Source: Jimgerdemannia flammicorona (Eukaryota). Taken from it: a stretch of DNA of 35,320 bases. The notes below the pieces were generated by a model. The model searched no databases, was not told the DNA's origin, and saw only the letters and a list, made by a program, of their open reading frames with translations. The translations under genes were made by a program, and so were the position numbers. This document shows positions 1,729 through 35,320 of the stretch, piece after piece. Positions within the stretch are counted from its first letter, which is position 1, and each line of letters opens with the position of its first letter. The stretch lies in the NCBI GenBank assembly GCA_003990765.1, contig RBNJ01000253.1, forward strand, positions 1-35,320, given 5' to 3'.

Positions 1729-2250
1729 ATGTTTATCAACCGCTACTTCAAGTTCGGCAGCCTCTTGGCGACCTTCCTCATCGTTGCCGCCTTTGCAACG
1801 AACGCCATGGCCAGGGCGGAAGGTAAATCGAGGTGGAAACCTTTCAGAATTGCTGTATTTGGTATGAATGTACCCGGCGGCACACTATTTGGATCCTTTG
1901 AAGGGAAAGGCCGTTCCATCGATAAAGTCCGCGGCCGTTTCTTCAGCGACGGCAAAATCTGCACCTGGTAAGCTGATGTTCTTTTTAAGTCGACATGAAC
2001 AGTCGATCACCTTTTTCTCATCTTCGGTTTTTCATTTCCACCACTGTTGTTTAGGCACATGGAAGTCGTCGTTTACAACGAAACGGCTTATGAGGTGGAT
2101 CGCAAGAGGGGCAAATTCCACTATGATTGCAGTACAAATGGCGTTGAAAACTTTGTCCTCGATCGCAATGTGCAGAGCGGCATGGTTTGCGTGACTCTGA
2201 CGAAGTCTACTCGAGAAATTACGGAAGTTTGCCACAAATTTCACAAGTAA
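1729..2250 (+). CDS. Two-exon gene for a 144-aa small secreted protein with 4 Cys (exons 1729-1967 and 2055-2250)
   Basis: Hydrophobic N-terminus (LLATFLIVAAFATNAMA). GTAAGC donor at 1968 and TTTAG acceptor ending at 2054 give an 87-nt intron that joins the two track ORFs in frame (TG|G = Trp; ...KICTW-HMEVVVY...VCHKFHK*). CpG-normal composition; TATA box upstream. Confidence 0.85.
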
Positions 2251-3820: not shown

Positions 3821-6423
3821 TGTGAGTATTTAATAATAAATATTAACCATTTATTATTTATATATTTATATAAAATATAGAGTATTATAATAAGCCAGCA
3901 GAGAAATATACCAAGTTATCATCTAAATTAGTCATTATAATTTTGCTATATATTATATCAGATATACTAAACAATCAGACTATCTTATTATACTAACTTG
4001 TATAAATAACTTAGATAGTTAAATAAGGATACAAAGAGTTCCAAGCTAATATACTATATCAGAATTTGAGATTAGTATTCTTAGCTAATATACTATACCA
4101 GAATTTGAGATTTATATTCTTAATAAGAATAGCTAAACTTTATCAAAAACAGTAATCTATAGTTAGTTATATAGTAACTTGATAGTAATTATAATTGTAT
4201 AAAATACTCCAGAGATAAGAGTTAATAAATCTTAGTTCAAAAAGTTCAAAAGCAAATTATAAGTCTACTCAATATACTTTGAGATATATATATATATCTA
4301 CCAAAAGTTACTTGATTCAGAAAGAATTACAATACTTAAAATATTGTAAGCTTTGTCTTATTCTCACTCTGATCTACTTTCTGATAAAAAGCCTAATTTA
4401 CTACTAAGTTTAAGTAAAGAGCTTTATTATTATTTTAAGAAGTAGTCTACTACTTAAAGATAGCCTAGTATCAGATATACTTTTATAGTAAATCTGTTTA
4501 TACAAATGAAAGAGTCTTTGATATACATAACTCTGATAAGTCTGTCATTTTCAAGTGATCTGCTATTTATAAAAAGCTGCTATTTTCAAGAAGTCTACTA
4601 ATTTAAAAAGAATTAGTACTAGTCAAGTAATTTAATAGTTTAGAAAGAATCTATATCAATCTAGTAATCTGTTAATTTAGAAAGAAATCTGTATTACTTA
4701 AGTTATTTAGTTTATTTAAGAAGTCTATCAAAATTATTATATTATATCAGACTACCAAATTAAGAAATTACTAAAATCATCTATTATATAAACTAGAGAA
4801 CTTACTCAGAAATCCAGTATTGTCTTTATACTACTAAATACTAATAAGCTGAAACCATTGAACATTTTGTTGCTTTTGACAAAGTAACTAGAGACTTAAG
4901 CTAATCTTCATAGTAGCTCTAATCTTATAATTTATCTCTATTGAGCTAGCATATTACATTTGGAGACTTAACTAAGAAGATTTTCTTTAAATATATATGA
5001 CTTTTCAGCTCACAAGCACTCAATAGCCAAACTGAATATATTAGATATAATATCAATTTTGCTTCTATAGAAAAATAAGTCATTATCAGCATTTAGACAG
5101 AAAGAGAAATAATTATCTCAAGACTTATCAATTATTTAGTATTAAAAGGATCTCAACCAGAAGTCAGTATAGTATAGAATTCTCAACCAGTACTAACAGA
5201 CTTATCACCAGGAGATCTGATTCAATTAGATCAATTAGATAATATAGATAGCTCTATCAGAAACTTCAATAAGTTTATATAAGAATTAGAAAACTTCATT
5301 GTATAATTCCAGTTTTTCTCAGAAGCTCTACTAGTCTCTCTCATTAAACTATTATTAAGACTAAAAATATTCCCTTCAAGAATACTCAGATCTACTATAT
5401 CTTATCTATCAATAATACTATCTTCAGGATATCCAAGCATCCTAAGTTCTGACAACAACTCAGAAAGTAAATCAGAACCAGAATCAGAACAAGAAGATAG
5501 TGAAACAAAACAACCACCTCAATGCTAACTTTTGCAGAATATTTAGAAGACTCAAGAGAATTTCTTGATAAAATTGAATAAATAGCAATTCTAAAAAATC
5601 TCTCTGGCTAGAGAAAAATTGACATCTTCAAAGTCTAATTTAGAGAACTAGTTAAGGGAATTTTCAACTGAATAGGAAGTAATATACATTTGGACCTTAG
5701 AGCAATTATTTATATAGTACTATTCTAGAAAGAATAATATGAAGTCATGATCTACTAACTTATAGAAAAATATGCAAAAAATGAAATGTGCTACAAGGTT
5801 CAAGAATCCATTATAAGAATAAAAATAAATCTTAAAAAATCACCCAGAGTATTCTTTACTAGAATTTAGAAAAGAATATATATAGCTGAGTTCAATACTA
5901 CTAACTAAGACATTATAGATTTAATGACTTTTATAAATAAGATCTCTCCAACTATTACTCAGTATATATATTTATATTCTAAATATCAGAAAGTCTGAAG
6001 AATATATAGATATAGCTCAAGAATTTTTTGATATTAGATAAGAAACTACCTGGAGTAATTATAATAAGAAGAATGATAAGAAAGACCTCTTGGTTAAAAC
6101 CCTATAAGAACTTCTTTAAAAATGTAGTAAATCAGAAAAAAGAAAGCCAGCTATAGAGAAAAATAAAATCCAAGACCTCAACTCCAAGTTGGACTGATTG
6201 GTTGAGCAAATTGAAAAACTTACTATATATAAAATTAGAACTACTTACAGAACAACAGAGATTATATACTGTAAAGAAACCAAGACTACTCACTGAGAGA
6301 TAACAGGAGTTATTTATTACAAGAAGATAGAAGATACTAAGTCTGAGATAGAGCCCAAGTCTAATACTTCTACTGTAGATAGTTTGGACACTATATTATA
6401 GAATATAATAATAGGAGAAGTAA
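3821..6423 (+). mobile_element. Relic D: 5' LTR/leader and gag of an element related to B, truncated just after the zinc knuckle (5' boundary tentative)
   Basis: ~4150-4240 matches the B LTR core (tgtataaaatacCccagagaCaagagtGaataaaCctCag). ~4850-6420 aligns to B 19230-19404 plus 26086-27485. The degenerate knuckle *YFYCR*FGHYIIEY (6362-6406) corresponds to B QCFHCGQFGHYATEC. TGTGA at 3821 is a possible LTR start. Confidence 0.7.
4044..4121 (+). repeat. 2 x 39-bp tandem repeat within the putative LTR of relic D
   Basis: agctaatatactata(t/c)cagaatttgagatt..tattctt at 4044 and 4083. Confidence 0.8.
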
Positions 6424-6946
6424 TGAGAATACAGTCTACCTCACTACTGAAGAAGTCAATTGGGTGAAAGCTGAAGTTACTAATTACCTCAGAAGCAACT
6501 GTGTTACTGTAGGAAGTTAATAAACTGAACTTACTCTGCCAGTCTTTCATACTACCCATTTCCAAGACAACTATCAAGATCATCTGATGAGTCTCATGGA
6601 AATATTCAAAGAACTACCCATTATTGTCAAAGCACCTACAGGAGCTACTATAGCTACCCACCACTCTATCAGTTATATGTCACATTACATTATATAAGAG
6701 CTGAACCAAGAAGTTTCAGAAGCTTCTGTCCAAAAAGAAGAAGAATACTAAGACTCTACCATTGAAACTACTGTAGTACCTCAAGATGCCCAAACTGATG
6801 AATTCTTAGAAGAAGAACAACAAAGGATCTACTAGTCTTCAGTCTGCCTTCAAGCTGTGCAAGGGTTAGAAAAAGTCATTGAAGATAATTGACCATTATT
6901 CTATTCTCTCATCTCTTGGTCAGTACTTTTTCTCTTTGAAGAGCAG
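6424..6946 (+). repeat. Duplicate of the 3' internal region (ORF3 C-terminal half) of element A, lying upstream of A's 5' LTR
   Basis: Colinear with 16556-17078 at a constant offset of 10132 nt; differences are mostly transitions. Confidence 0.85.
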
Positions 6947-8038
6947 TATGATGAAGTCACAACCCAGCAAGATGATTCACTTACCACTGGCAAAGAGTAC
7001 TATATCTTTTAAGGCAGAGATCAATATTCCTTATCAGCAGTACAGAATAAAGATATTTCAGTCTTATCTGATTTAGTTAGTACTACTCTCTATATAAGTG
7101 TACTATAGTTCAGTCCAAATATAGAACAGCCCCTCCATTATCTAAACATTCTTTATCAGTGATATAGAATAAGAGTGTTCTGACCTTACCCTATTAGTAT
7201 AGTCTTTGCTACTGATATACTATTACTGGCAAATCAATAGTATATCAAGATCTTACCACTAGGACATAGCAGAAATATATATAAATACCCCCAAAGATAA
7301 GAGTGAATAAACCTCAGTTAGTTTGAGTTTGAAGTAAAAAGAATTACAGAGAACCCACTATCTCTAAGATATAGGAATAATTCTAAGAAATTAGATAACT
7401 AGAGCAATGATTGCTTGAGATTTGAGTTTGAAGAATTTTTCTTGCCATGGACTGCTACTATGAAAACTGTTATAAAACCCATTAGCTAAGGAAACACTAC
7501 TATGAGAATTGGATACAAGACTTATAGAAAATATCAGAACATTGCCAGGAAACTTAGCCAAGGATACCAGAATAATCACCAATCTGCCAAGAAGCTCTAA
7601 AGACTCACAAAAATGATTGCCAGTCAGAAACTCAAGAACAACTCAGTTAATACTACTTTGGAAAATCATTATGAAGCCCAAGAAACAAGATAATCTGCTA
7701 AATAATTGCTGGAAACTCCAGAATAATGTGAGAATCACCAATCTACCAGAAGATAACAGAGTGCAGCCAAGAAGTACAGAGAATCTATAACTTATATTCT
7801 TCAACCTTTTTGCCATTTGGAATAACTGGTTACATGACCAATGACTTGTAATATATAAACTTCAGCAACACATAAACTCCAACCTGATGCAAATGAGAAA
7901 TACAAATAAATTGAACAGTAGTTGAATTGAATATTGAGCCAGAACATTATCAGATAAAAGATAAATAGTTTATAAGATAACTAAGTGACATATCAAGTAG
8001 TATATTCTGCAAACAAGATATAAATATTGTATGTCACA
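6947..8038 (+). repeat. 5' (shared) LTR of element A
   Basis: Ends GTCACA at 8038, followed by a PBS. Begins TATGAT (mutated TGTGAC) after purine-rich GAAGAG. Contains the tatataaata...gagtgaataaacctc core. Direct repeat of 17079-18097. Start is inferred. Confidence 0.8.
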
Positions 8039-11000: not shown

Positions 11001-14000
11001 AAAGAAAGCAAGTCAGACCTCTGAAATAAAATGGTAAGAATATGGAGATATATCTACTTCTATAGAAGATGAAAGTGAAGCCAATTTTCTATAAGAACTA
11101 AGAAGTGATTTTGATGTCCTCCAAGACTCTGAAAGTGGTCAAGAAGATTCTTTTATTGGAGTTGTTGACACTGAGGATCTAGAGGAAAGCATTGAATGAA
11201 CTATTAGTAAATATACAATACTCGAGTTTGCAAGACCATCTATACAACCACTACTATCTCTGAAAGAAAACAGAATTATATAAGTCTTCCACTTAGGCAT
11301 ATGTGAATACTATAACTATTTCCACTCACTAAGAGATAATTGTAGTAACTATTAAATCCTTGATCTTAAGAAGATTTCAATATTACTAATAGAAGATAAA
11401 GATGAGTTGAAATAAGCCCCAGTACTCATATGAATACAACTACCAACCCCAAAGATATTCAAGAAAACCTATAAGAAAGAACAAAAGATCCTCTCTTACC
11501 AATCTCTGGAAACTCTTACAATCAAAGAAGATAATAACAATATCTACACTAATATCTGAGCTCTTTAGATTACCCTATCCACTTATGATAAATATCAAAA
11601 GAGATACCCTATAAGTAAGGAAGTCAAGCAGCAGAATGAGGAGTTTGTTAAGTAAGGACACTGTAATTATGGAAAGACCTTTACCTGTTATTGGTATAAA
11701 TATCAAAGTATTTATCTCAGTGATGATATCTATAAGAGTCAAGTCAAGAGAAAGGATCCTACTCTGCAAGAACTACAGATTTGCTGGGCCTATCAAAAAT
11801 GCAAACAGATCAACCACAAAGAAGACTGCAAAGCTAAGAGTAAGACCTCTATTTGAGATCTGTTATTAGAATTACTTATAATTATTCACTAATATTACTA
11901 TCCTTTTTAAGACAACTAAGAAGTCAACCTTGCCTTTGCTTTCATGGAAGCCCTGGATCTACTTAGAAGAACAGGATTAAATTATACAAGAAATCCAAAG
12001 ACTGGAGTATATTGACTATTCTTTAAGCCAGAATATATAGAGTTTTTATTTATAATAGCAACTACAGAGGTACTATTTCTCAAAACTCAGCCAGTTATTC
12101 AAGTCAAGTTACTATCACTCTGGATACAACCCACTCTTATACAAATAGAAGAATTGATTAGATATGATCTCTGTCTTCTCTACTAGGCAATGCTGTGTCC
12201 CAGAACTACAAAGACCTTTGATCTTCAAATTGCACTCACTATATCATCTAGACACTATGGTTAACTAGCATCAAGATCATTCTGGCAGTCAAAGAAGTTA
12301 CTGTAGAAGGAGAAGTTATTGACTAAGATTATCAAGACCCACTGAAGGTTATCATCTACAATAGTAGCAAAAATCACTGAGTCTTAAATCTCTTAGAAGC
12401 CATCTGTCAGATCCTGTTTATTAAGATATCACAACTAACTATCTAAGTAGTATACTAACTCAGCAGTACCAAGAGAGGACAAGGAGGCTTTGAAAGTACC
12501 AATAGAACCCAACTACCTATTGAAGTCCACCTAGCAACAGTGGCTCAGTTCTATCAAATAAAACCATACTTCTGCTGTCTTATTTGAATAAGAGAAGATG
12601 TTATCCTCCAGTCTTATCAACAAAGAAGCCTAGACATATATCTACTAGAAGATACCAATAATCTGATATTTGAGCCTTCAATCAAACTTTAAGAAAAATA
12701 TCACCTCCTCTAAGCCAAAGAATAAATTCATTATCAGATGTCACCAATTTATATCTCTATTAGAAATTTGGGCTTTGAAGTAGTAAAAATTTCCAAAGAA
12801 ACAACACTGGGATACTTTGAACTACTGATAGATACTTATGAGAAAGAAGTCTTTGAATTTTTGGGAAATAGCAAGCCCTTTCTGGTGAGACTGACAGTAT
12901 TAGGAAAGAAGACTCAGTAATCAAAGCCATCAATATTGAGATAACTCTAACAGAGGATCAGCAACAACAGATACAAAAGTTGATAGAAGAATATAAAGAT
13001 ATATTTACCACAATATATAATAACTTCTCATCATATCAATATGAAAAGCATACTATATATACAGGAGATGAAAAACTAGTCTGATAGTGCCCATACTGAA
13101 CACCATACCACCTGATTGAGTTTGAACAATAACATATAGAAGAAATAATATGAAATAGAGTTATCAAGCCCTCATTAAGTTCTTGGACTTTACTAGCAAT
13201 TATAGTACTAAAGAAAGGAGGATGAATACTAGTTGTAGACTTCAAGAAACTTAATAAGATCACTATAGAAGATGTCTACCCACTACCAAGAATTGATGAC
13301 CTCCTCAATACTTTTAGAAAAGCCAAGTATATAACTACAGATCAATTTCAAGAATTCCAAGTAATATCTATTGCTAAGAATAATATCTGCAAGATAGCTT
13401 TTATTATCAGACCAGAATAGTATAAATACCTTCATATACCATTTGGACTTTACAATATATCAGCCTCATTCCAATAAATAATAAACTATATCTACCAAGA
13501 CCTCATTGGAAGAAATGTACTAGTATATATAGATGATGTAATCATCTACTCTGAAATGTTCAAATAACATCTACAAGATCTCTGTGAGATGTTTGACACT
13601 ATTTAAAGATCAGAACTTATACTTAATACTAAGAAATACTTCTTTGGAAAACACCAAGTTGAATATCTGAGATATGTTATCTCAGCCCAAGGAATCCATG
13701 CTGACTCTTGTAAGGTAGAGAAAGTCAAGAACTACCCAACCCCAATCTCAGCAAAGGAGACCCTATCCTTCCTCATATTAGCATCTTACTATCAGCAATT
13801 TATCTCAAGATTTTCTAATAAAGTACTACTACTATGAGATATTACCAAGAAGGACTAACTATTTCACTAGAAGGAAGACCAATAGAAGTTATTTGATCTA
13901 CTTAAGAAGGCTCTTACTGAAGCATCTGTTCTGGCTTGACCAAACTTCAACAAGTCATTTATTCTGATAACCAATGCCTCAGCTCTAGGACTTAGACCAA

Positions 14001-16169: not shown

Positions 16170-17080
16170 ATGCCTTCTTTTCACTACTCTAATCAGACCT
16201 TCTGCTACAGCACTTCTTTACCAAGTCTAAAGAGTCTTATCCTTAAAGCCATCAAAATAGCTATCTGGTACCCTGATACTACTGAACATCTGAACTTCTA
16301 TACTGAAGACCTTAGATATTTTATCAACTACTACTATATAATAATCTAGTAGCTTAATAACACTACTGACCAAATAACTCTCTGATATGACTATGAAATT
16401 AGATACCACCTCTATAATAAAACTCAAGAAGATGACTGGAAAGACCTTATTGCTGAACTATTAACCACCAACCAGCTGATCAAGAGAGCTCTTCATGTCT
16501 ACCAAATCTTCTGCCATATACTCTAGACTATAGCTCACTTATAAGGAGTTATTACTAGGAACATAGTCTGCCTTACTACTGAAGAAGTCAATTAGGGGGA
16601 AGCTGAAGTTGCCAATTACCTCAGGAGCAACCATATAACTATAGGAAGTCAACAAATTAAACTCACTCTGTCAGGCTTCCATACTACTCCTCTCTGAGAC
16701 AACTATCAAGATGATCTAATGAGTCTCATGGAAATCTTCAAAGGACCACCTATTACAGTCAAAGTACCTGCAGAAGTTACTATGACCACTCATTACCCCA
16801 TTAGTTATATATCACATTACATTATATGAGAATTAAACCAAGAAGTCCTAGAAGCTCCTATTTAAGAAGAAGAAGAATATCAAGACTCTACCATCAAAAC
16901 TGCTATAGTATCTCAAGATGTCCAAACTGATGAATTCTTACAAGAAGAATAATAAAGGATCTACCAGTCTTCAGTCTGCCTTCAAGCTGTGCAAGAGTTG
17001 GAAAATGTCATTGAAGATGATTGGCCACTATTATATCCCCTCACCTCTTGGTCAATATTTCTTCTCTTTGAAGAGTGGTA
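16170..17080 (+). pseudogene. Element A ORF3 (unknown function)
   Basis: One frame from ATG 16170 containing YEIRYHL...KRALHVYQIFCHIL*TIAHL*GVIT, alignable with ORF3 of C and B; acidic C-terminal half. Confidence 0.65.
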
Positions 17081-18097
17081 TAATCTAGTAAGATGATTTA
17101 TATACTTACTACTAATAATGAGTACTATATCTTTTAAGGTAGAGATCAATATTTCTTACCAGCAGTACCAAATAAAGGTATTTCAGCCTTACCTGATTTA
17201 GTTAGTATCACCCTTTATATAAGTATATTATAGTTTAGCCTAAATATAGAATAACCCCCCTATTACCTAAATATTCTTTACCAGCAGTACAGAACAAAAG
17301 TGTTCTGACCTTACTCCATTAGTATAGTTTTTATTACTGATATACTGCCACTGATAAATCAATAGTATATTCAGACCTTACCACTAGGGTATAGCAGAAA
17401 CATATATAAATACTCCTAAAGATAAGAGTAAATAAACCTCCAGTTTGAGTTTGAAGTAAAAAGGATTATAGAGAAATACACTGCCTTTAAGAAATAGGAA
17501 TAATTCTAAGAAATAAGATAACTAGAGCAATAATCACTCAAGGTTTGAGTTTGATAAATTTCTCTTACCACAGACTACTACTAAGAAAACCACTATGAAA
17601 CTTATCAGATATGGAAATACTACTATTAGAATTAAATATAAAACCTCTGGAAAATATCAAAACATTATCAGAAAACTTAGCCAAGGATACCAGAATAATT
17701 ACCAATCTGTCAGGAAGTTCAGAAAACCTGCAAAAATGATTACTAGCCAGAAACTCAAGAACAACTTAATTAATACCACTTCAGAAATCATCACAAAGCT
17801 CAAAAAATAAGATAATCCACTAAACAATTACTGGAAACTCCAGAACAATATAAGAATCACCAATCTGCCAGGAGATAACAGAGTGTAGCCAAGAAGTACA
17901 GAGAATTTTTGACTTATATTCTTCAACCTTTTCCCTATTCTGAATGACTGGTCACATGACCAATAGCTCATGATATATAAACTTCAGCAATACATGAATT
18001 CTAACCTGATGTGAATAAGAAATGCAAACAAATTGAACAGTAGTTAAACTGAATATTGAGTCAAAACATTATCAGATAAAAGATAAATAGTGTATAT
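17079..18097 (+). repeat. 3' LTR of element A, cut ~63 bp before its end by element B
   Basis: Aligns to 6947-7974; homology stops exactly where TGTGAC of B begins (18098). Confidence 0.85.
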
Positions 18098-18655
18098 TGT
18101 GACAAACTACAAAACATAGCAATCTCAAAACCTAACCAGGTAACATGAACATTAGCATAGCAACCAGTAACTATTACTATAGAAAATGTATAAATAACCA
18201 GATAACCAAAGAAGGGAATAATGTGAACAGTGGCTGTCCTCTAGACAGTAGCTGTCTGCCAGACAGTGACTGTTCACCCAAACACACCATAAATAGCAAA
18301 CCTATAGTTAGTCAGATAAGTAACCAGATAGCAACCACAATGTATAAAATACCCCAGAGACAAGAGTGAATAAACCTCAGTCTGAAATTCAGAATATATT
18401 TCAATTCCAGTTCACTTTCCAATATAAAGAAGAGTCTGAAATACAAATATCAAAGAAGCCTCTAAAGATTGAGCATTGGTCTCCTTTCCACTCTGGTCCA
18501 CTTTCTGATACAAAGCTTGAAGATTTTACCATCAAGTTTGAGTGAAGAACTTTGCCACCTTTGGAATTATTGGTATGCCTGCCAGACTAAGCCTAAAGAA
18601 TTCGAGTTTGCCACCAAGTTCAAGAAAGAACTTCACTACCATTTCTAAGTTATCT
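18098..18655 (+). repeat. 5' LTR of element B (minimum extent; may end at TTCACA 18718)
   Basis: Colinear with 34750-35307 at a constant offset of 16652; contains 3 x 18-bp acagt(g/a)(g/a)ctgt units at ~18227-18275. Confidence 0.85.
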
Positions 18656-19404
18656 GCCACATTCCCAGAATAGCTCACCTTTCTTGCCACAAGCCTGTCT
18701 TTCTGACACAACTTCACAGTAGAGCCAGTCTAATGACATAACTCTGCACAAATGAAGCCAGTCTTTGACACAACTTGCCAAGAATCTGAGTTAATTTCCA
18801 GTTAAAAACATTATTTCCAAGTCATCTGCCATTCCCAGTAAAGCCCATCACCTGAGTTATTATTTCCAGAGAGCCTACTACATTCTTATCTGAGTTATCT
18901 GAATTATCTGCCTCACCCGATTTATCTGAATTGCCCACCAAATCAAGTTATCCACCAGATCACTATATTCTCAGTTGACCTGCATAAGGACTCACACTAT
19001 ACAAGAGATCATCATATTAGAAATTGTATACTTTTAGAGATTGTCTTACTACACAAAATTATAGTATTCCCAGTTGATCCAAATAAGGAACCCACTCATG
19101 CTACATACAAATTAACTGCTATCCAAGAAGGAAACCACTCACACAAACTGCTGCTACATCCAAGAACCTGTCCCAAAAAGGAAACTGCTCACACAGTATC
19201 CAGATCTTGACTATTATACCACTAAACACCAAGAATATTTTGTTGCTTTTAACAAAGTAACTGAGGGGTCAAGCCAAACTATATCAACCCTCAAGCTTAT
19301 AATTTGCCTCCATTGAGCCAGGTATGTTAAATTTGGGGACTCAACTAGAAAGATTTCAAAATTGACATAACTCTTCAGCTCACAAGAACCTACAGTCAAA
19401 CTGG

Positions 19405-19871
19405 TGTGACAGTATAGCCAGATTCAGAAGAAGGAAATAGGGAACAGATATTTGATCACACCCAGTCCCAAAGTAGTATAGCCACATAGTTAGCAGTCCT
19501 CAATTTTGCCACTTGCTAAATATTTTGCAAAGTGTGAGATCGAGCTTCTCGATATAGTATAGCATTTTGCAACTGGCAAAATATTTCACAAAGTGTTAAA
19601 TGACTCATAACCTAGCCATATAACTTAGTAACCATCTCATAGCTAGCAAACTTGTATAAATAACCCAGTATCTTTGAGTGAATAAAACCTCAGATCGAAA
19701 TAGTTCAAAGCAAAGAGATAGTAATGGAACTAGTAAGCCTGTGGGCAGATACACTTCAAACTCACCCACCCTCCCCTGCAACTCAAAGGACTCCGAGGAG
19801 TCAGAGAAGATCAAGTTTTCAAGATACAGAAATCCAATATACTTTCAAGAGTAAGTGTCTGCTACATTACA
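19405..19871 (+). repeat. 5' LTR of element C
   Basis: TGTGAC...TTACA; ~95% identical to 25619-26085 with no indels; contains TATAAATA and AATAAA. Confidence 0.95.
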
Positions 19872-19874
19872 ACT

Positions 19875-19891
19875 TGGTGCCCATTGGCTGG
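19875..19891 (+). promoter_or_regulatory. Probable primer-binding site of element C (tRNA unassigned)
   Basis: TGGTGCCCATTGGCTGG, 3 nt after the 5' LTR, the same spacing as in A. Confidence 0.55.
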
Positions 19892-19985: not shown

Positions 19986-22900
19986 ATGGATATGAGACCA
20001 CCAGTATTCCATGGATATACCTCAGATGAATCAATCATCACATTCATTGATGATTTCAAGCAGTATGCTGCTGTAAGGACCCTGACAGCAGTACAGCAAG
20101 TAGCTCTCATACCCTTCAGCCTATGAGATCCTGCCAGAGCAGCATTCACAGCTGCAACCCATGCAGGAAATGATACTGATGCTATACTGACAGTACAGAA
20201 GACCTGGCTCCAAAATACATATTATACAGATGAGATCAAGCAAGCCCTGAAGGATCAGCTCAATACAATATGTCAAGGAATGAGTGAGAATCCAAACACA
20301 TTCTATACCAGAATTCGATATCAGATAATCCTTGCAGATTATGCTGCTGCTATGTATCTGAGATCAAGTAGCCAAAGCAACCTTTATGAAAGGAGTCCAT
20401 CCAGAAATAGCCATGGCTATCCACTCATCACCAGTGATTCTGGATCTGCCACAGAAGGTCACCTATGCTCAGTGATACTAGATAGCCAGACATCCACAAG
20501 ACTATACAATGGAAAGGGTCACAGAAGTCAAAATTGAAGCACCCAAGACAACTAGTGTGATCCCTATCACAATGATCAATTGAAACACACCTCAGCAAAA
20601 AGCTACAGAGCAGCAACAGAACAGTGACCCTATGGAGGAACTCACCAAAAGGTTTGCCAAAATGACTGCCCACCTGGGAGATGTGGTAAAGGAAATTTGA
20701 GGAAGAGACCACCGCCCTGTTCAGAAGTTTGCTACCACCTCAGACAAGAAGAAAGGTACCTACTACAGCTATGGAGAAGAAGGCCACTACTCATATGAAT
20801 GTATGAGTGAAACTAAGTGCAAAGCCCAACCAAGCAATGCTACATGAAATGAGGAGCAGGCCAATACAATTACCTTTGAGAAAATTGGAGATTCTGATGA
20901 AGAAGAATGAAAGGCCTATCCTGCTCAGACTACCAAGAAGGATGTTCACAAGGAACCCTACAAGAGACCACCAAGGAGACCCAAGAAGAACTCAGTAGAA
21001 AAGCAGATGGAAATGGCCACCAAAAGCCAAGCTGAAGAGATGGACCAAGATATGGAGCTGGAACAAGCAGTTCAAGATATTATCTGAGGAACTACTCCAG
21101 CCAGTGAAGGAGAAAAAGAAAAGAAACTTCGTAAGACCAAGACTTTCAAGTATGATATCTTCAAGGACCTTAGCCAACAAAAGGTCAATGCAACCTTTGG
21201 TCAGCTCGCAGAAATCCTAACATTCAGACAACAAATGAGGTTCAGACTTGCCAAAACAACCAAGGAGCAAGAATGGAAGATAACTGAGGCCAATAACATT
21301 CAAGAGGACTCAGGAGAAGAAAGTGAAGACAATTGCAAAACCTCTGCCTATGCTACCTGCCAGATCGAGGACTGAGTCTTTGAAGCCATCATCAATATAG
21401 GAGTAGGAGGATATCTCATCACTAAGAAAGCAGTAGACCACCTAGGCTGGGAGATAGAAGAAGCTACCAAATTGATGTTCATCACAGCCAATAGCACAAG
21501 AGCCACACCTCTGGGAAAGATCCAGGATGTATCCATCAAGTTTGGAGAAGCCACCATTCCAGTAGATGTCATCATCACCAATGCAACCAACTATGATATC
21601 CTCATTGGCAACCAATGGCTTCACAAAGCCAAGGCAATGATCAATCTCAGTATACAGAAGATGCAAATCGTCTACCAGGGAAAGAAGATCAGAATTCCCA
21701 TCAATGTCAACAAAGGAGTCTGCCCAGAAATGGAGAAAGAGCAAGAAGAAGAAGCCTACATGGTTACCATGAAGAAAGGAAAAGATAAGCAGTGGACAGA
21801 GGAAGAATGGTACAAAAGGATTGTAGATGGATACACCCCACTAGGAAGGTGCCCCCATGGTGAAAGAATGTACTGTGCCCAGCACTTGGATTGCTGCTAC
21901 TCCTGCATCATTGAAGTGAAAAGATCTCCAACAAGCCAAAGAAGAACCAGGAGGAACCAGAAGATGGACCACCAGAGCTATTGAATAACAGTGATGATGA
22001 AGAAGACATCACAGTCAAGATATGAAGAATTCACCCTGATGCAGTCTTACCACAGTACAAATTAGAGAATGTAGCAGGAATGGACCTATCTACCACAACA
22101 TACACAATCCTCAAACTGCAAACCACTACTATGCTGGGAACAGGAATCAAAGTAACCATCCCACCAAATCATGTTAGAATCTTCAAGACAAGGAGCAGCT
22201 TGGCAAAAGCGAAATATCCATAGAAGGAGGAGTCATTGATTCAGACTATACAGGAGAAATCCTCCTCCTTACCAGGAATCATAATCCAACAATTCCATTT
22301 GAAGTATAGAAGAAGGATCAGCTGGCACAAATGCTCATCCTATCTGTCCTTAACCCAAGAATCAAGGAAGTCACAAACATCAGACAAACTCAGCAAGGAA
22401 GAGCTGGATTCAGCTCTACAGGAAGAGGAGTTCTCGCAGCAACCAAGATTACAGAATTGGAGTACAAGAAGGAGGAAAGCCAAGACAAATACACTTATGT
22501 AATCAGAAAGAACTTTCCCCTCAGGAAGGAGTTGCAGAACCTCTTACATACATTTGAAGATGTACTGGTTACAGATTTCAAGGACATCAAGACCAAGAAA
22601 CCCTTGTACTATCATGATGTCAATACTGGAGATGCGAAACCAATCTATCAAAAAGCCCACCCCATTCCACTAGCATACAGGGAATGGCTCAAGACTGAAA
22701 TCAAGGAAATGGAGGAATCTGGTATCATCAAGAAAGCCAGCAGCCCTTGGTCTTCATCTATTGTCCTTGTACCAAAGAAAGGAAGCTGACCAGAAGAATT
22801 TGCACCAAGACTCTGCACAGACTATAGAAGACTCAATAAGGTCACAGAGAAGGATAGACAATCATTGCCCAACATTGATGACATTCTTATTATGCTGGAG

Positions 22901-23929
22901 AATGAATCACAATTTTACACCACTCTGGATCTGTTCTCAGAATTCTACCAAATTGGCCTTACACCTGAAGCCAGCAAAAGATCAGCCTTCATTACTCCTG
23001 ATGGAACCTATGTCTATCTCTGCATATCCTTTGGAATGTGCAATGCATCAGCAAGCTTCCAGCAAATGATAAATAGCATCTTCAGGGATGTTATGGAAAA
23101 ATGGATGATGATATATATGGATGATGTAATCAACTTCAGCTGAACAGCTAAGGAGCACTTGGAATATATCAAGGAAATCCTCAGAAGGCTTCACAAAAAT
23201 GGCCTCTACATCAAGCCTAAGAAATATAAATTTAGAGAAGAAGAAATCACATACCTCGGATACATCATAAACTGCAAAGGAACACATACAGATCCCACAA
23301 AGATCAAGGCAGTAGCAGCATACCTGGTACCTACCAGTGTCACTGAAGTCCGAGCCTTCATAGGACTAGCATCCTATTATAGGAGATTTATTTGAAGATT
23401 CTCCCACATTGCCAGCCCTATCTACAATCTGTTCAGAAAAGAGATCAAGTTCCAGTGGACACAACAACAGCAACTAGCCTTTGATGAACTCAAGATCAGG
23501 CTGACCCAGGCCCCAATCTTGAGAAGACCTGACTGGATGTGAGAATTTATTCTACAGACAGATATCAGTACAATGGGACTTAGAGCTATCCTTGTATAGA
23601 AGAAGAATGGCACCGAGTATGTAGTAGCCTATCTCAGCTGAGGTACTCGCAGAGTGGAGCAGTCCTATGAGTCATACAAGCTAGAATGTCATGCAGTCAT
23701 CTGGGCTGTAGAGAAGTTCCACTATTACCTGGTAAGAAGATACTTCACCATCTAGACAGACCACTCAGCACTCATCTGGTTGCTCACTACCAGTGAACCC
23801 AAAGGAATCTACACCTGATGGATCATGAAGCTGCAAGTATATGATGCCACAATCACTCACTGCCCTGGAAGAACCAATGTCAATACTGACACTCTCTCAT
23901 AGACACCCCAAAGGACCCCACCCCAATAA
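19986..23929 (+). pseudogene. Element C gag-PR-dUTPase-RT-RNaseH
   Basis: MRPPVFHG gag start; knuckle remnant TYYSYGEEGHYSYEC 20758-20802; protease AIINIGVGG ~21385 and ILIGNQWL; dUTPase ~22014-22423 (EGGVIDSDYTGEI, GRAGFSSTG); RT IYMDDV ~23111; RNaseH QTDIS and TDHSAL. Confidence 0.9.
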
Positions 23930-23936
23930 AATCATC

Positions 23937-25130
23937 ATGAATAGAGAGCTGTACTATAGAATCATCAGCTATCTGGGGCAGCGAAAGATACCCCTGCATC
24001 TGGAAGAATGGACAAAAACAATTATTAGTTGGATATGGAAACAATTCGAAACTGATGGAGAAATACTCAAGAAAGGACAATAATTAGTTATCTCTGAGCA
24101 TCGGAAGAATCAAGTAATGAAAGAAGTACATGAATAAGGCTATATAGGAGGAATAAATACATATAACAAAGCAAGAAGAACCATGTGGTGGTCTGGAATG
24201 GAAGAAGATATCAGACAATTCATCAGAACCTGTGACAAATGCTAGAAATAGAAATAAGACCAATAAAACCAGGCCCCAGGATCAGCACACATAGAACCAG
24301 TACCATTTGTCCACATAGCAATGGATGTAATCGGCCCTCTACCCTTGACCCTGACTGGTAACTGATATATCATTGTCATCATAGACCTTTTTACAAAGTG
24401 GATAGAAGTGGGACCCCTCAAGGAAGCCAATACACAGTCAATCACTGATTTCTTCCACAAGGAAATCATCTGTCAGTTCAAGACCCCAACATAAGTAACT
24501 ACAGATAGAGGAACAGAATTCATGTATCAGTTCTTTGAAGTTCTCTACAAGAAGTATAAGATCCAGCACATTCAGGCCACAGCCTATTACCCCCAAGGAA
24601 ATGAATAAGCAGAAAGGACCAACAAGACCCTCAAGAATGTTATCGCCAAGATCTGTGATAACTATGAAAACTGAGATCACTATCTGCCAATAGCATTATC
24701 TGCTCTCCAAAATATCAGATCACAAAGTACCCACTTTACCCTCCAGGAGATGCTGTTCAGAGAAGAAAGTTCTAGTGGAAGTTTGTCAGCAAATAATGAT
24801 GCAGTCTAGAAGCATGTGGACATAGAGATATGGAGATTATATCAAATTAGAAAAAAGGCAGAGGATTATATAATCAAGGCACAGGCACTACAATGGAGCA
24901 ATGCGGAAAAGATTCACAAGCCCCTGGAGATTATTAAGATAGGAGACAAAGTCCTGATATACCGGAACATGATAGAAGCTTCTTGGTCATGAAAACTGGA
25001 GCCCAAGTAGGAAGGACCTTACCTGGTGCAAGATATAAAAGAGACCACTTTCTGACTACAAAAGCCCTCAGACACAATAATCCCCACCACTATTTACTGA
25101 AACTAACTCAAGAAATATCATGGCCAGTAA
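23937..25130 (+). pseudogene. Element C integrase, separate ORF
   Basis: MNRELYYRIISYL start; CDKC 24231; IAMDVIGP 24315; TDRGTEF; PQGNE*AER; EGPY 25011; single frame throughout. Confidence 0.9.
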
Positions 25131-25581
25131 CCAAAGTACTGCAATGGCACTCAAGAGCACTAGTGCTGCCCAAAGAGCCATCAAGAGACAATGGTGCACC
25201 ACTGAGCCTCCGACCATAGAGGAGTCTTATGACAGTATTCAAAGCATTATGCAGACTCATCTCTCTTGGATCTCATACTTCAAGGCCTATCAGCATTGAA
25301 ACAAATTTCAAGAGTACTTCAAACTTGGCCAAGTACTCAACTAAGACCCAGAAATGACCAAAGAAAATTAGATTGCAGAATGCCAGCTCTCCTATTCCCA
25401 GATCACCATTGCTAAGAGAATCTACAAGCTATTCCAAGAGAATGAACCAGCACTAGCCCACCTGTGAGGAGTGACTCCCTCAGACTTCGACTGAGTCAGG
25501 CGATACCATTGGGAAACAGTAATACAACAAATCGCACAATACAAGACCATACAGACCATTGAAGCCTGGAAGTTTGAATAG
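25120..25581 (+). pseudogene. Element C ORF3 (153 codons, unknown function)
   Basis: MASNQSTAMALK...EYFKLGQVLN*...ITIAKRIYKLFQENEPALAHL*GVTPSDFD*V...AWKFE*. ATG overlaps the integrase end; five internal stops, all transition-revertible. Confidence 0.7.
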
Positions 25582-25608: not shown

Positions 25609-25617
25609 AGGAGGAAG
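25609..25617 (+). promoter_or_regulatory. Polypurine tract of element C
   Basis: AGGAGGAAG 1 nt before the 3' LTR. Confidence 0.65.
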
Positions 25618-25618: not shown

Positions 25619-26085
25619 TGTGACAGTATAGCCAGATTCAGAAGAAGGAAATAGGGAACAGACACTTGATTGCACCTAGTCCCAAAGTAGTATAGCTATA
25701 TAGTTAGCAGTCCTCAATTTTGCCACTTGCTAAATATTTCGCAAAGTGTGAAATCGAGCTTCTCGATATAGTATAGCATTTTGCAACTGGCAAAATATTT
25801 CACAAAGTGTTAAATGACTCATAACCTAGCTATGTAACTCAGTAACCATCTCATAGCTAGCAAACTTGTATAAATAACCCAGTATCTTCAAGTGAATAAA
25901 ACCTCAGATTGAAATAGTTCAAAGTAAAGAGATAGCAAAGGAACTAGTAAGCCTGTGGGCAGATATACTTCGAACTCACCCACCCTCCCCTGCAACTCAA
26001 AGGACTCTGAGGAGTCAGAGAAGATCAAGTTTTCAAGATACAGAAATCCAATGTACTTTCAAGAGTAAGTGTCTGCTATGTTACA
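25619..26085 (+). repeat. 3' LTR of element C
   Basis: TGTGAC...TTACA, 467 bp, followed by TSD CTGG. Confidence 0.95.
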
Positions 26086-26568
26086 CTGGATACATTTGAT
26101 ACAATACCAATCTCTGCTACCACAGGAGAACCAGTTATCACCAGCATCTGGACAGAAAGAGAAGTAATCACATCAAGACTCACCAACTATCCAGAATCAG
26201 AAGGAGCTCAACCAGAAGGCAGTACAGTCCAAAATCCCCAACCAGATTAACCAGACAATACAGGCAGCCCTGCTAGAGATTTTGAAGAACTTATACAAGA
26301 ACTAGCAGATCTTATCACATGAACCCAAGACCTTACAGCCAGATGTTCCATATCAGTCCCATCAATTTCACTAATAGAACCTTTACCACAACCTCTTGCA
26401 GAGTTGGATATAGCTCCTATAAGAATACCTAGGCTTATTCCACTTCATCTAAGGTCCAGAAAACCATCCTCCAGATACCCAAGCACCCCCATCTCCAGTA
26501 ATAGTTCAGAAAGTGAATCAGAATCAGAATCCGAACCTGAACCAGAATCAGAAGAAAGTGATGACAAA

Positions 26569-29500: not shown

Positions 29501-32500
29501 AAGACATCCTAGCTCTCATCAGACATACAATCTGCCAAGGATGGGCCAAAGATGCCACCAACTTTATAGAAGCCCTAGACCCTATAGGAAGAAGAGGAAT
29601 CAACTATCTCTAAGACCCCTCTACTGGAGCCAGATGGCCACACCTTAACCTCAGAGCATGGAGGCTCTCTGCTAGTAGAGCTTCAGCCCTAGAACAGCCT
29701 GAACTCAGCAAGAACATTGCCCAATATGCCCTGCTACATCCCAAGGCCAAACCCCCACCCAGAAGATATAGGGTATAATCTTCACAGTCTAGAGGATGAA
29801 TCTATTAAACCTGGAAAGACCTTCATGATCAGAACTAGATTAGCCATACAGCCACTCCAAGGAGCTTACATCTAACTAACCTCAATGTCTGGACTTGCCA
29901 GATAAGGAATAATGGTAGAAGGAGGAACCATTGACCCAGGATATACAGGCAAAATCAAGGTCATTCTATACAACAGTAGTATAGAATGGTACTGAATCAT
30001 TAGAGGACAGAAGATGGCCCAAGCATCATGCTCCTTTCTCTGCTACTTTACCAGTCACAAGGTTTGATAGGCGACCTTCTGAGTCCCCTTTCCCCTATTA
30101 TTACCCCCTCTACCTTGGGTTGGTTTGCTGTACCTGCAAGGGCATGGTGGGAGGAGGGCAACAGTGATGAGTTGCCCCTTTATCAGTGTCGGATTGGTGC
30201 TTCCTCTACTTTTTTGTGGATTCTGGTGCCTTTGGCTACATCTGGGGTATATCCGTTTTGGTGCAGCACCTTCTTCCTTTTGCTGTTGCCAACAAGGTGT
30301 TGTCTCAGTATGTCTCAGGCTATGTATAGAGTCAGCCAACCTTGGGCATCAAGTGCTCAGTGTAGGTTACCTGTAGGTCCTCAGTGCCTGTAGTGGGGCC
30401 CTCTGGCTTTGGCAAGCTTCCCGGTGAGCATGGTTCTGGCATAGGTGACTGCTTTTCAGGTGTTGTTGGGATGGGAGGAGAGATGGCCGTCACAGATACA
30501 TAGGAGGAAGGGTGATAATGGTGAACCAGTAGGGTGCCAGGCTGGGGGCAGTTATTGGGGCTGGGGCAGATACTGCTTCGGTGTGGCCTTTTGATTGGTG
30601 TGGCACAGTTAGGTGGTAGGTGTCACTATCAGCTTCTTTTGGCGGTCAGTGAGGTTGGGCCCCAGTCATCAGGGGGGGTCAGGAGGCCCAAGGCTACCCA
30701 TTTAAGGTATCTTGGCTGCACTCAACTGGAACCAGGAGCTGACATGGTAATGTGATCGAGGCCCACAGGCTTGAGTAGTGGGGTATTGGGGGTTTCCTCC
30801 TGCCTCACATGTAAGTCCTTTACTCACCTCAACTGGGAGAACCAGGCCCTACCCACTATGTTGTGCTTTGATGAGGGTTTTTTCTTTACCTATCATTCTC
30901 TTTGGGATGGCAGGGGCTATTCTATTCAGCTTGGGCATGGCCTTGTACATACGTTGGGTTCTCAGGCATGCGCTTTCAGTCATTGGCATATGGTTGGGTT
31001 TCCCCTGATGGTAGGGAGAGCATGGTGCACAGAATAAGGTGTGGGCCTAATCAGCCCTGCTGCGCCTGGCATGGTTGAGCTACTGGACAATAGCTAGCCT
31101 AGGTTAATGGGGGGGCAGTGCTTGGTGGGTGGTGGGGGAGGGTTTTGGCCTATAGTCTAGGTTCCCTTTCAATAAAAATCCGCCAGACATGAGTCCATTA
31201 AAAAAAAAAAAAAAAAAAAAGATGGCCCAAGCAGTCTTCATGAAGGTCAAGACCCCACAATTGCAAGAAGTTTCTGAACTAACTGAAGGAACAAGACAGG
31301 CCAAAGGATTTGAAAGTTCAGATATAAAGGAAGTACACCTCCTTCAAGTCAACTACCTCAAGAGGAATACTCTCTAGCAAGTATATCAGTAACTAGTCAG
31401 ACCATATAAGAATATGATTCTGGAGTCTGGAGAACAAACTATCTTCAAAATCTTTGCACTACCTGACCCCAGAAATCTTTTCTTTAAACCCAAAGAAGAT
31501 ATCCTACACCTGGACATAGAGGGATACACATTCTCTGATAAGATAGATCCAGTACACTCCTGAGCAACCAACCAAAGTTGGGAGACCATCATCTTGCTGA
31601 AAGGAACCATCATAGGACATCTAGTGCCTTTTCTCAACTGAGCTCATAGGGAAGTTTATAAACTAAATATATCAGGAAATGGCAAAAGGTCCCAGAAGAA
31701 AGGAAAGGCCCCTCTGTGATCCAGGAGACAGTGAAGTCTTCTATCAATATTGGAGAAGAATTGATACCCCAACAACAGCAACAACTAGTAGAACTTCTCA
31801 ACAAATATCAAGATATCTTCACCACTGATTATGGTAACCTGCCATATAATCCATCATATCACCATAATATAAATACAGAAAATGCAACACCCATCTAACA
31901 GAAACTCTACAGAATACCCCATCACTTGAAAACATTCAAAAAGGAGTACATTCAAGAACTCTTAGATAATGGGATTATCTAACCCTCTACCAGCCCCTGG
32001 GCTAGCCCTATACTTATTGTACCAAAGAAAGGAAGATGGAGACTCTGTGTGGATTACAGGAAACTCAATTCATTCACTAAAAAGAATGCCTATCCTTTGT
32101 CCAGAATCAATGACCTTTTGGATCAGTTACAAGATGCCAGATACTTCAGCAGTATGGACCTCTTTGTAGGATTCTATGAGATCTCCATAGACCCCAAGGA
32201 CATTCAAAAGACAGCCTTTTTTGCTCTAGGAAAACTGTTTGAGTACCTCTGAATGCCCTTTGGACTCTGCAATATACCCCCCACCTTTCAGAGGATGATT
32301 AACTCAGTCTATGCCCCCTTGATCTACTACTGTCTGATTGTATACATGGACAATTCCAATATCTATTCAGCAAATTTTGAAGAATACCTACACTACCTAG
32401 AGAAATTCTTCAAGCTCACCCACAAGAATCACTTGAAATTGAATGCAAAGAAATGCTACTTTGGGAAACAGAAACTTGAATTCCTTGGATTCATAGTTTC

Positions 32501-33146: not shown

Positions 33147-34207
33147 ACCAGAAAAAGGGTGTCCCAGGGAACTACACCCTAAAGGAAGCTCCTCAGATCA
33201 TTAAGACACAAGATGATCTTATCTGAAAAGAACATCAGAAAGTCCATCAAGGACAGGTGAATATAGAAAAGAAGTTGTGAACAATACACCAACATTGGCC
33301 CAACCTCAGAACATAAGTCCAGGACATACTCAAGAAATGTGACATATGTCAGAAGTATCAAGGAAGGAAGAACTATCAAGCACTATTGCAACCAATCACA
33401 CCACTAGACAACATCTTTCAGAGATGGAGAATAGATGTAATTAGACCTCTACTAGTTACACCAAGAAGAAACAAATATATTCTTATATTTGTAGAACATC
33501 TGACCAAGTGGCCCAAGGCTTTCCCAATGGAAATTGCAGATATCTTAACCATTGTAGGCCTTCTCTATAGACTTACACTCAGATATCGACTCCCAGAAGA
33601 ACTCATCTCTGACCAAGGCACAGAATTCATCAATAATATAATCACAAGTTATGTTCAAATTCACAAGATCTACCTCAAGCAGACCACATCATACCACCCT
33701 CAAACCAATAGCATGACAGAGAGAATGAATCAGACCATTAAGAAAGGACTTGCCCAAGTCAATCCTACCAATTGGGACCTCTGCTTACCCAAGATCCTAT
33801 GGGAAATTTGGAACACCTCTGCTGCCTCCACCAAACAGAAGCCATTTGAAATGATGTTTGCCAAGAAAACCAAAACTGCTGACCACAAGAATCTTGGAGA
33901 CCTCCTCAAGAAGGCAGAACAGTTATGTAATCAAGCCTGAGGTCAGATTATCAAAGCCCAAGAAAGACAGAAGAAGTACTATAACCAAAAACAGAAGGAT
34001 CAGAAGATCAAGATTGGAGATCAAGTACTAGTTTGAAGAAGCATGATTGAAACAAATTTTGCTGCCAAATTGGAACTCAAATGGGAAGGATCTTATCTCA
34101 TATATAATATTAGAGGAACCAGCATCTATTTAAGTATAGATAGATGAACCCTGAGAATACCAGTATACATCAATCACCTCAAACTATATCTCCCCTCTAC
34201 ACCATAA
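33143..34207 (+). pseudogene. Element B integrase, separate ORF
   Basis: HQKVH...CDIC; WRIDVI; SDQGTEF; HPQTNSMTERMN; WEGSY (GPY) 34082. Single frame, -1 relative to RNaseH; start codon ATA (inferred ATG). Confidence 0.85.
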
Positions 34208-34698
34208 GCTAAAGAATTGATCAGTGCCTCCAGACATTGGTCCTCAGCTCCTTCCAGGCCCTACCAGTTCCCTTACCCCAGTTCTGCCAACTTGAAGGAA
34301 CCCCAATACAATTGATCCAGAAGCATCAAGAGAATCTTACCATCATCTATAGATTGTTACAAATCCACCATCTATAGGTCTTCTACAATATCAGACAACT
34401 ACTTCAAGAACAGCTATATATTGAAGGACCAGCTGGCATAACCTGGTGAGAAGCAAGAACTGTCAAATAAATCTACACCTTGTATAAACGAAATGTTGGA
34501 GCCCTGGTGCAGTCTCACTTCTACCTCAATGATATTCACCAGATGAATGAGACCACCTTTCAGAGTATTCTTCAACAAGTAGACATCCTGTTTCCTGAAG
34601 AACAAGAAGAAGATCCAGAGTTAGAATGGAGTGACCCTGGTACAGATAATGAAGATAATGGAATGGGTATAGATACAGAAGCAGCTTATGCTTATTAG
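34204..34698 (+). pseudogene. Element B ORF3 (unknown function)
   Basis: FYNIRQLL...EARTVK*IYTLYKRNVGALVQ aligns with ORF3 of C and A; acidic tail; start ATA (inferred ATG) overlaps the integrase stop. Confidence 0.6.
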
Positions 34699-34749
34699 GA
34701 TGATGACTGAAGAACAGTCTGAGACAGACTATCCTTCAGTCAGAGCTGA

Positions 34750-35307
34750 TGTGATAAACTACAAAATGTAGCAATCTCAAAACCTAACCAGGTGATGTGA
34801 ATATTAGCATAGCAACCAGCAATCATTACCATGGAAAATATATAAATAACCAGATAACCAAAGAAGGGAATAATGTGAACAGTGGCTATCTCCTAGACAG
34901 TGGCTGTCTGCTGGACAGTAACTATCCACCCAAATATACCATAAATAGCAAACCTATAGTTAGCTAGATAAGTAACCAGATAGTAATCATAATATATAAA
35001 ATACCCCAGAGACAAGAGTGAATAAACCTCAGTCTGAAATTCAGAACATATTTCAACTCTAGTTCACTTTCTGATACAAAGAAGAGTCTGAAATACAAAT
35101 ATCAAAGAAGCCTCTAAAGATTGAGCATTGGTCTCCTTTTTACTCCAGTCCACTTTCTAATACAAAGCTTGAAGATTTTGCCACCAAGTTTGAGTGAAGA
35201 ATTTCACCACCTTTAGAATTATTGGTATGCTTGCCAGACTAAGCCTGAAGAATCTGAGTTTGCTGCCAAGTTCAAGGAAGAACTTTGCCATCATTTTCAA
35301 GGTATCT
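34750..35307 (+). repeat. 3' LTR of element B (truncated by a poly-T run and the window end)
   Basis: Colinear with 18098-18655. Confidence 0.9.
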
Positions 35308-35320
35308 TTTTTTTTTTTTT

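Follow-up and report, generated by a model that had tools for sequence, protein, structure and literature searches.

A retained open reading frame between integrase and the 3′ terminal repeat in nested Ty3/Gypsy elements of Jimgerdemannia flammicorona

Gag and pol are commonly held to suffice for simple retrotransposons, and to our knowledge almost all the extra genes of long terminal repeat (LTR) retrotransposons, bar env-like genes and the CERV gene of Cer1, are of unknown function. A stretch of 35,320 nucleotides from Jimgerdemannia flammicorona (contig RBNJ01000253.1 of assembly GCA_003990765.1; hereafter the window) raises the question of whether a further gene of this kind exists in Ty3/Gypsy elements, and what it could be for. 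Three families of these elements lie in the window, here named A, B and C, and an initial annotation made from the sequence alone had noticed behind the integrase of each a short frame, in the position of env, that seemed to be retained although the families have strongly diverged. We refer to this frame as ORF3 (open reading frame 3). Our analysis shows that ORF3 is a real, pol-linked accessory gene under selection, and points tentatively to a role in the expression of the element itself.

In element C, ORF3 occupies 25120..25581 (+) and is a decayed copy of a gene for an accessory protein of 153 amino acids (aa). The frame begins with an ATG at 25120, ends with a stop at 25579-25581 and comprises 153 codons with 5 in-frame stops, which bears out the frame first marked at this position. 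In the +1 frame relative to pol, it starts 11 nt ahead of the pol stop (25128-25130), overlapping the last codons of pol, and it lies in the interval from the end of integrase (25130) to the polypurine tract (PPT) and the 3′ LTR (25619).

Intact relatives of this copy were recovered from protein collections. A word-indexed search of 5.8 billion proteins with the C ORF3 as query yielded 4 proteins among 12 candidates, the best of which, P0001, is 153 aa long and shares 76% identity over 99% of the query (E 9.7e-72); two further members of 153 aa, P0006 and P0010, were obtained from clusters. These 153-aa relatives align gaplessly to the C copy and have an ordinary residue opposite each of the 5 stops. 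A HMMER pass with the C-type profile over 1.84 billion representative proteins returned only 4 proteins at E <= 0.001, including the distant P0012 (165 aa, E 9.8e-8), and no relatives outside ORF3's own group were found among these representatives. The subfamily of P0012 (152-169 aa) comprises 11 proteins at E <= 0.01 among 38 candidates, together with cluster members. The B-type subfamily was found through the copy of element B read through its stops, with 5 proteins at E <= 0.1 among 15 candidates. Intact copies are known in all three subfamilies.

The gene was also found intact in its genomic setting. Among the 590 pattern matches listed, at least one such locus was confirmed as a relative, the 6479-bp metagenome contig L001, which shares 79.1% identity with element C across 6331 alignment columns. 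Its order is LTR, gag, protease (PR), dUTPase, reverse transcriptase (RT), RNase H, integrase (IN), ORF3, PPT and LTR, and the Pfam domains zf-CCHC, aspartyl protease, dUTPase, RVT_1 and RT_RNaseH were detected in its pol. ORF3 is intact in L001, with 153 codons at 5795-6253; the gag-pol of the same contig carries a frameshift and stops. Positions 1-80 of L001 hold an ORF3 tail and a PPT ahead of its LTR. No related loci were found in the viral contigs or in the prokaryotic genome contigs searched. In both C and L001 an in-frame stop stands 13 codons upstream of the ORF3 ATG, whose context is ATCATGG in C and ACCATGG in L001, and no convincing splice acceptor site upstream of this ATG is conserved among C, L001 and B.

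The other two families of the window carry their own copies. ORF3 of element B (34204..34710, +) is a decayed member of a subfamily of 169-183 aa with an acidic tail; its start is mutated and it contains in-frame stops. Its bounds are set at 34204-34710 because an intact protein of 183 aa, P0039, aligns over 99% of the B query with 74% identity. The B frame stands at -1 relative to pol and ends 39 nt short of the 3′ LTR. The ORF3-like frame of element A (16170..16667, +) is heavily decayed and matches the family profile at 16293-16586. The peptides initially picked out in A (16400-16560) and B (34381-34510) are indeed present, as parts only of these longer copies. In A, the ORF3-like frame still aligns to the family beyond the start of the terminal repeat at 16559 (16559-17100), and the same tail opens the 5′ repeat (6427-6970). 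Either ORF3 overlaps U3, the unique 3′ region of the LTR, or an upstream partial copy shares its LTR in tandem. Stop counts of the A frame within the repeat (7 versus 11 and 11; 6 versus 12 and 9) leave the start of the LTR undecided. The general layout is that of a gene with its own ATG, 0-40 nt from the pol stop and ahead of the PPT, in a frame that depends on the family (+1 in C, -1 in B). The linkage of ORF3 to integrase was seen in all four loci examined as DNA, namely A, B and C in the window and L001.

Whether the three copies descend from one gene is less evident from the window itself. In direct Smith-Waterman comparisons with 1000 shuffles each, the score was reached by 11 shuffles for C-A, 19 for C-B and 175 for A-B; judged by their sequences, the window copies on their own seem only marginally alike, and A-B is not significant. 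The C-family profile alone, run over the window, likewise gave no significant match to A (independent E-value 0.3) or B (4.8), and tblastn gave no match for ORF3 between families. The initial claim of conservation across the three families, faint by direct comparison, becomes firm through the intact relatives. None of 1000 shuffles reached the score of P0016 against A (z 7.6), B (z 5.0) or C (z 16.9), nor that of the B-type P0040 against C (z 6.0). When the six-frame translation of the window (70,636 residues) was searched with a profile built from 26 members, C emerged with an E of 3.6e-45; 16293-16586 in A matched at 2.2e-4 and 34366-34593 in B at 4.6e-3, and the next-best match had an E of 2.6. 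In 40 shuffled six-frame sets the best score was 2.6 bits, compared with 9.9 for A and 5.5 for B, so that 0/40 reached either; the reversed set gave -3.5. Profile comparison with hhalign linked the C-type to the P0012-type (97.6%, E 4.7e-12, 109 columns) and the P0012-type to the B-type (90.3%, E 1.5e-6, 92 columns), whereas the direct comparison of C-type with B-type reached only 40% (E 3e-4, 46 columns). Sequence comparison via these intact intermediates thus firmly supports homology of the subfamilies.

The families that share ORF3 are as strongly diverged as had been supposed: the RT-RNase H of the C-type is 34% identical to that of A and 40% to that of B, and gag is recognizable between families only at the zinc knuckle. 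ORF3 is best explained as a true accessory gene, passed down vertically within a clade of dUTPase-bearing, chromodomain-less Ty3/Gypsy elements.

Evidence for selection on the encoded protein comes from one pair of copies, C and L001, which underlies the substitution ratios and nucleotide identities given next. In their gapless ORF3 alignment, the proportion of nonsynonymous differences (pN) is 0.186 and that of synonymous differences (pS) is 0.701, giving a pN/pS of 0.265 compared with 0.40-2.04 in the other five frames. Transversions are found at 12 of 35 fourfold sites and at 24 of 296 first and second positions. With Jukes-Cantor correction, dN/dS is 0.12 for ORF3, 0.12 for gag, 0.11 for RT and 0.14 for the C-terminal part of integrase, the ORF3 value being rough because its pS is near saturation and exceeds the divergence of the LTRs. 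ORF3 is under purifying selection, in agreement with the initial proposal. The nucleotide identity of C and L001 is 0.71 in gag (20127-21037) and ORF3 (25120-25578), 0.77 in the LTR (19408-19878) and 0.80-0.86 in pol; the low values of gag and ORF3 suggest either that the elements are mosaic (recombinant) or that synonymous change is much faster at both ends of the coding region. In a neutral simulation, the share of trials in which a 153-codon frame stayed open was 11% at 79% aa identity and 4% at 70%. The intact ORF3 members span 52-87% aa identity in three subfamilies.

The protein has 150-180 aa and an all-helical globular domain of approximately 140 residues. Its best-kept stretch reads T-I-A-x-R-[IV]-Y-x-L-[FY]-[RK]...A-[LI]-x-H-x-[KR]-G. 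In an alignment of 21 sequences, L104 and A111 do not vary at all and R100 and F105 hardly vary, and L104 and A111 remain nearly invariant in a 17-row alignment that includes the decayed copies; the shared pattern first read from the window coincides with these columns. AlphaFold2 (AF2) predicted helices only for both proteins modeled. For P0016 the mean predicted local distance difference test (pLDDT) score is 78.0, with five models at 76.4-78.0; most of residues 1-140 exceed 85, and the tail at 142-167 falls below 50. For P0001 the best model has a pLDDT of 82.9 and a predicted template modeling score of 0.79, the five models ranging from 82.9 down to 50.5. In 11/11 intact members the Kyte-Doolittle mean over 19 residues peaks at 0.17-1.36, which gives no membrane segment. 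The models and the hydropathy show a predicted soluble protein of the all-alpha fold class, as the initial annotation had foreseen for a helical protein lacking a signal peptide and a transmembrane segment.

The subfamilies differ at the C-terminus. In the P0012-type and the B-type, the last 30 residues have a net charge of -10 to -13 in 8/8 proteins, with conserved tryptophans, and the chain ends in EWD[LV] or YW[ND]DD. C-type proteins end in EAWEFE, and their last 30 residues have a net charge of -2 to 0 (3/3). Acidic transcription activation domains of the Tas, VP16 or Gcn4 type are disordered and rich in D/E among which W/F/L are scattered; the tails of the P0012-type and the B-type have a composition of this sort, and those of the C-type do not. 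The overall isoelectric point (pI) is 4.5-5.0 in two subfamilies.

Database and structure searches gave no assignment to a known family. No Pfam family fell below E 0.01 for the 26 members (best E 0.01), and TBK1_ULD, touched by 6/26 members (best E 0.016), was taken as noise, as was TFIID subunit 1, the best match (E 0.2) in a sequence search of solved structures. Foldseek found 0 matches at E <= 0.001 in the PDB for either model (best 0.71 and 0.45), the best match in BFVD had an E of 0.6, and the ESM Atlas held no usable match for P0016. Among known motifs, the HEPN-type R-x(4-6)-H pattern was rejected, the spacing from R to H being too long and the R not conserved in the alignments. Patterns for LC3- or Atg8-interacting motifs (LIR/AIM), nuclear export signals and SUMO interaction in the tails were also set aside, as each fits only one or two subfamilies.

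The elements that carry the gene form a nested Ty3/Gypsy set in repeat-rich eukaryotic DNA, as revealed by self-comparison and junction sequences. Self-comparison defines the 5′ LTR of element C at 19405..19871 (+), with a primer binding site (PBS) downstream, and its 3′ LTR at 25619..26085 (+), with TG...CA ends and 94.9% identity to 19405-19871. Each is 467 bp long, and a 4-bp target duplication, CTGG, bounds the element (19401-19404 and 26086-26089). The PPT, AGGAGGAAG, at 25609..25617 (+) lies 27 nt past the ORF3 stop. The integrase at 23901..25130 (+) consists of a zinc-binding domain, an rve core and a GPY/F-SH3 tail, and the pol stop is at 25128-25130. Pfam detected Integrase_H2C2 (9.9e-14) and rve (2.5e-11) in 23901-25130, with SH3_Tf2-1 (0.19) below the cut-off. 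The chromodomain, noted initially as absent, was not found after the GPY/F module in the Pfam scan of the integrase (23901-25130) and ORF3. By its PR-RT-RNase H-IN order, CCHC gag, TG...CA LTRs, PBS, PPT and short duplication, the ORF3-bearing element belongs to the Ty3/Gypsy group (Metaviridae). A dUTPase lies between protease and RT in all three families (12120-12530, 22100-22420 and 29753-30052), with Pfam E-values of 6.8e-13 in A, 2.5e-14 in B and 2.7e-28 in L001.

Element C was inserted in element B, and the two flanks of C run on without a break in a B-like relic, D (4860-5201). The LTRs of B start at 18098 and 34750 and share 89% identity over 558 bp; the 3′ LTR (34750..35320, +), whose 5′ partner starts from 18098, reaches the end of the window. 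The 3′ terminal repeat of A (16559..18096, +) is 1.5 kb long and is 82% identical to its partner at 6427-7974. Element A is preceded by the B-like gag relic D (approximately 4150-6423), which ends just past its zinc knuckle, and the 5′ LTR of B begins 1-2 nt beyond the 3′ repeat of A (18096-18098; also 6423-6427), so that three insertions abut within a few bases. The dUTPase of B is split at profile position 98/129 by an insertion of approximately 1.15 kb at about 30040-31220, which is G+C-rich (0.48-0.58) and T-skewed, ends in a 21-nt poly(A) (31200-31220) and looks like a retroposed sequence.

The observed/expected ratio of CpG is 0.00-0.17 over the retroelement DNA (4000-35320) compared with 1.08 in the first 2 kb (1-2000), and the TpA/ApT ratio is raised (1.0-1.2) in the older copies A and D. 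This pattern is that expected of C-to-T decay aimed at repeats, either linked to methylation or resembling repeat-induced point mutation. The three copies of the window are dead relics, with stops and CpG decay. In the CpG-normal flank, 1729-2250 (+) may hold a gene of two exons that encodes a small protein whose start resembles a signal peptide (MFINRYFKFGSLLATFLIVAAFATNAMA...), and a 26-nt poly(A) lies at 614-639.

What could such a gene do for the element? The reading that we favor, possible rather than probable, is that ORF3 would act in trans on the expression of its own element, as an adaptor or a regulator. It is favored because this is a small gene that adjoins the 3′ LTR and encodes a globular domain with, in two subfamilies, a disordered, acidic and aromatic tail; among the putative roles listed at the outset, which were those of an anti-silencing factor, an integrase partner or targeting factor and a transactivator, the last appears to fit this tail best, by its composition and in those two subfamilies. 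The helical domain would bind nucleic acid of the element or a viral protein, and the tail would recruit host machinery by one of two routes. It might act as an activator of transcription on the LTR, in the manner of foamy-virus Tas and the Tax of human T-cell leukemia virus (HTLV), or it might serve as an adaptor for RNA export, in the manner of Rev and Cer1 CERV.

A lead for the putative DNA target of ORF3 is found in U3, where tandem palindromes specific to each family lie upstream of the TATA box. In B, ACAGTNNCTGT occurs three times at a spacing of 18 nt, at 18227-18273 and 34879-34925. In L001, TGCCAAATGGCA occurs within four repeat units at about 180-300, and the U3 of C (19505-19581 and 25719-25795) holds two decayed copies of the same TGCCAAATGGCA motif. 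The second LTR copy, which closes L001, carries a 20-nt tandem repeat that is unlike this one. We tentatively propose that the helical domain may recognize the U3 palindromes (or the element's RNA) and that the acidic tryptophan tail may recruit the host transcription or export machinery, an arrangement that would be older than the split of the families (RT identity 34-40%). If true, ORF3 would be to these retrotransposons what Tas/Tax or Rev are to retroviruses.

Several observations weigh against this regulatory reading. The C-type lacks a strongly acidic tail, and a mechanism based on the tail can therefore explain the protein only in part. Host factors may just as well be what binds the U3 repeats, and no clear nucleic-acid-binding fold emerged from the searches, the helix-hairpin-helix (HhH) DNA-binding fold being among those considered in structure comparison. 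The selection estimate carries its own uncertainty, since ORF3 pS (0.70) is near saturation and above the LTR divergence (0.23), so that the corrected ratio is rough, and the copies C and L001 may be mosaic.

Other roles have to be weighed against the same evidence. ORF3 might serve in counter-defense, as a small helical adaptor that neutralizes RNA silencing, DNA methylation, deaminase-type mutation or uracil repair by the host, by analogy with lentiviral Vpr, Vpx and Vif and with foamy-virus Bet. The protein is small, helical, fast-evolving and element-specific, diverges between families as gag does and is accompanied by a dUTPase in all three; attack by the host is also evident in the CpG ratio, which is about 0 over 4000-35320 and about 1 over 1-2000. 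Since database and structure searches gave no motif or fold link to known antagonists, and the single pair compared shows purifying selection without sign of an arms race, we regard this role as somewhat unlikely. Association with the integrase, suggested first in the initial annotation, or with Gag is unlikely. Here ORF3 would join the pre-integration complex or the particle and steer integration in the chromodomain's stead, which would suit a gene that all three families retain immediately downstream of integrase, where the latter finishes with its GPY/F module and has no chromodomain; the clustered and nested insertions of the window are also what targeted integration predicts. Position, however, is the sole tie between ORF3 and integrase, and nesting also arises from relaxed selection in repeat-rich DNA. 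A further point against it is that targeting by Ty1, Ty3, Ty5 and Tf1 works through the integrase itself. A complex prediction for residues 105-253 of the L001 integrase (P0044) with the L001 ORF3 scored 0.00 and is uninformative both ways.

The long helices of ORF3 and a rate of divergence similar to that of gag would also be compatible with a packaged structural protein or nucleic-acid chaperone, a second Gag-like component. We consider this very unlikely, given that the ORF3 profile has no similarity to the gag of the same elements, with only the three ORF3 sites scoring, and that the protein has neither a zinc knuckle nor a basic cluster, its pI of 4.5-5.0 in two subfamilies being ill-suited to coating nucleic acid. 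Most improbable of all is that ORF3 is not a separate gene but a C-terminal extension of Pol made by frameshifting, or a frame kept open by chance or by nucleotide-level constraint from the PPT or packaging signals. Its start does overlap the end of pol, the region adjoins cis-acting sequences, and gene callers always start at an ATG, so that the common starts of database proteins prove little. Yet no single frameshift signal fits a frame that is +1 in C and -1 in B, and the selection is frame-specific (0.265 versus 0.40-2.04). Contrary to a constraint on the RNA, nucleotide identity in ORF3 (0.71) is lower than in the LTR (0.77), and frames are intact at 52-87% aa identity in three subfamilies when drift would leave 4-11% open.

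Regulators of this kind are familiar from retroviruses. Foamy-virus Tas/Bel1, HTLV Tax/Rex and the Tat/Rev of human immunodeficiency virus are transactivators or export adaptors encoded 3′ of pol or env, and Tas and Tax carry acidic activation regions. ORF3 resembles them as a small gene near the 3′ LTR and in the acidic composition of the tails of two subfamilies; it differs in having no sequence or fold similarity to them (best E in BFVD 0.6) and in the C-type having no acidic tail. Membership among Env or env-like proteins was not supported, as no membrane-spanning segment was found in 11 members and no envelope or fusion family in the Pfam search of 26 members.

Within Ty3/Gypsy, CERV is the one characterized non-env accessory protein. 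According to Sun et al. 2023 (PMC10309623), CERV of the Caenorhabditis elegans Gypsy/Ty3 element Cer1 is a non-env regulatory protein needed for nuclear export of the genomic RNA. It is described there as a protein of 517 aa whose spliced mRNA has five exons, shared in part with gag, with an H domain, a ring-forming M domain and a GTPase-like G domain, and as having no homologues outside its host group (PMC10309623). The two proteins are alike in being non-env, encoded by Ty3/Gypsy elements and devoid of homologues beyond their own group, and CERV is evidence that elements of this type can depend on an accessory protein. ORF3, with 152-183 aa, a single frame after pol and helices only, with no strands, is set apart from CERV as described in that text.

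Extra frames are also on record in fungi and plants. Novikova et al. 2010 (PMC2864245) draw, for certain fungal Gypsy elements, an 'add. ORF of unknown function', and describe a dUTPase between PR and RT; these elements were compared with ORF3 by that description only, and the sequences may overlap. In plants, Vicient and Casacuberta 2020 (PMC7264820) describe additional ORFs (aORFs), the sense ones env-like and others antisense. By this account aORFs and ORF3 are alike in lying between pol and the PPT or 3′ LTR in most copies of a family, and they differ in that plant sense aORFs are env-like, whereas ORF3 has no signal peptide, membrane segment or Pfam match. The brtn gene of the Botrytis element Boty (BcGypsy1) is another extra gene, antisense by the title of Zhao et al. 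2011 as cited (PMC7264820; 10.1101/2021.04.13.439636). Compared by these descriptions, brtn and ORF3 are both extra genes of Gypsy elements, brtn antisense and ORF3 sense. No prior description of the ORF3 family was found in the open-access literature searched, Pfam or PDB, and no match emerged there to an already described Gypsy accessory protein, the outcome that the initial annotation had named as telling against its proposal. Extra ORFs of LTR retrotransposons are a known kind of feature, to which ORF3 adds a new protein family.

These findings show a gene beyond gag and pol that has been kept under purifying selection across a divergence as deep as 34-40% RT identity. ORF3 accounts for a protein repeatedly listed as 'hypothetical' among metagenome gene calls and provides an annotation marker for the dUTPase-bearing, chromodomain-less Gypsy clade. 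At 150-180 aa, it is a small and testable candidate for a regulatory or counter-defense protein encoded by a retrotransposon.

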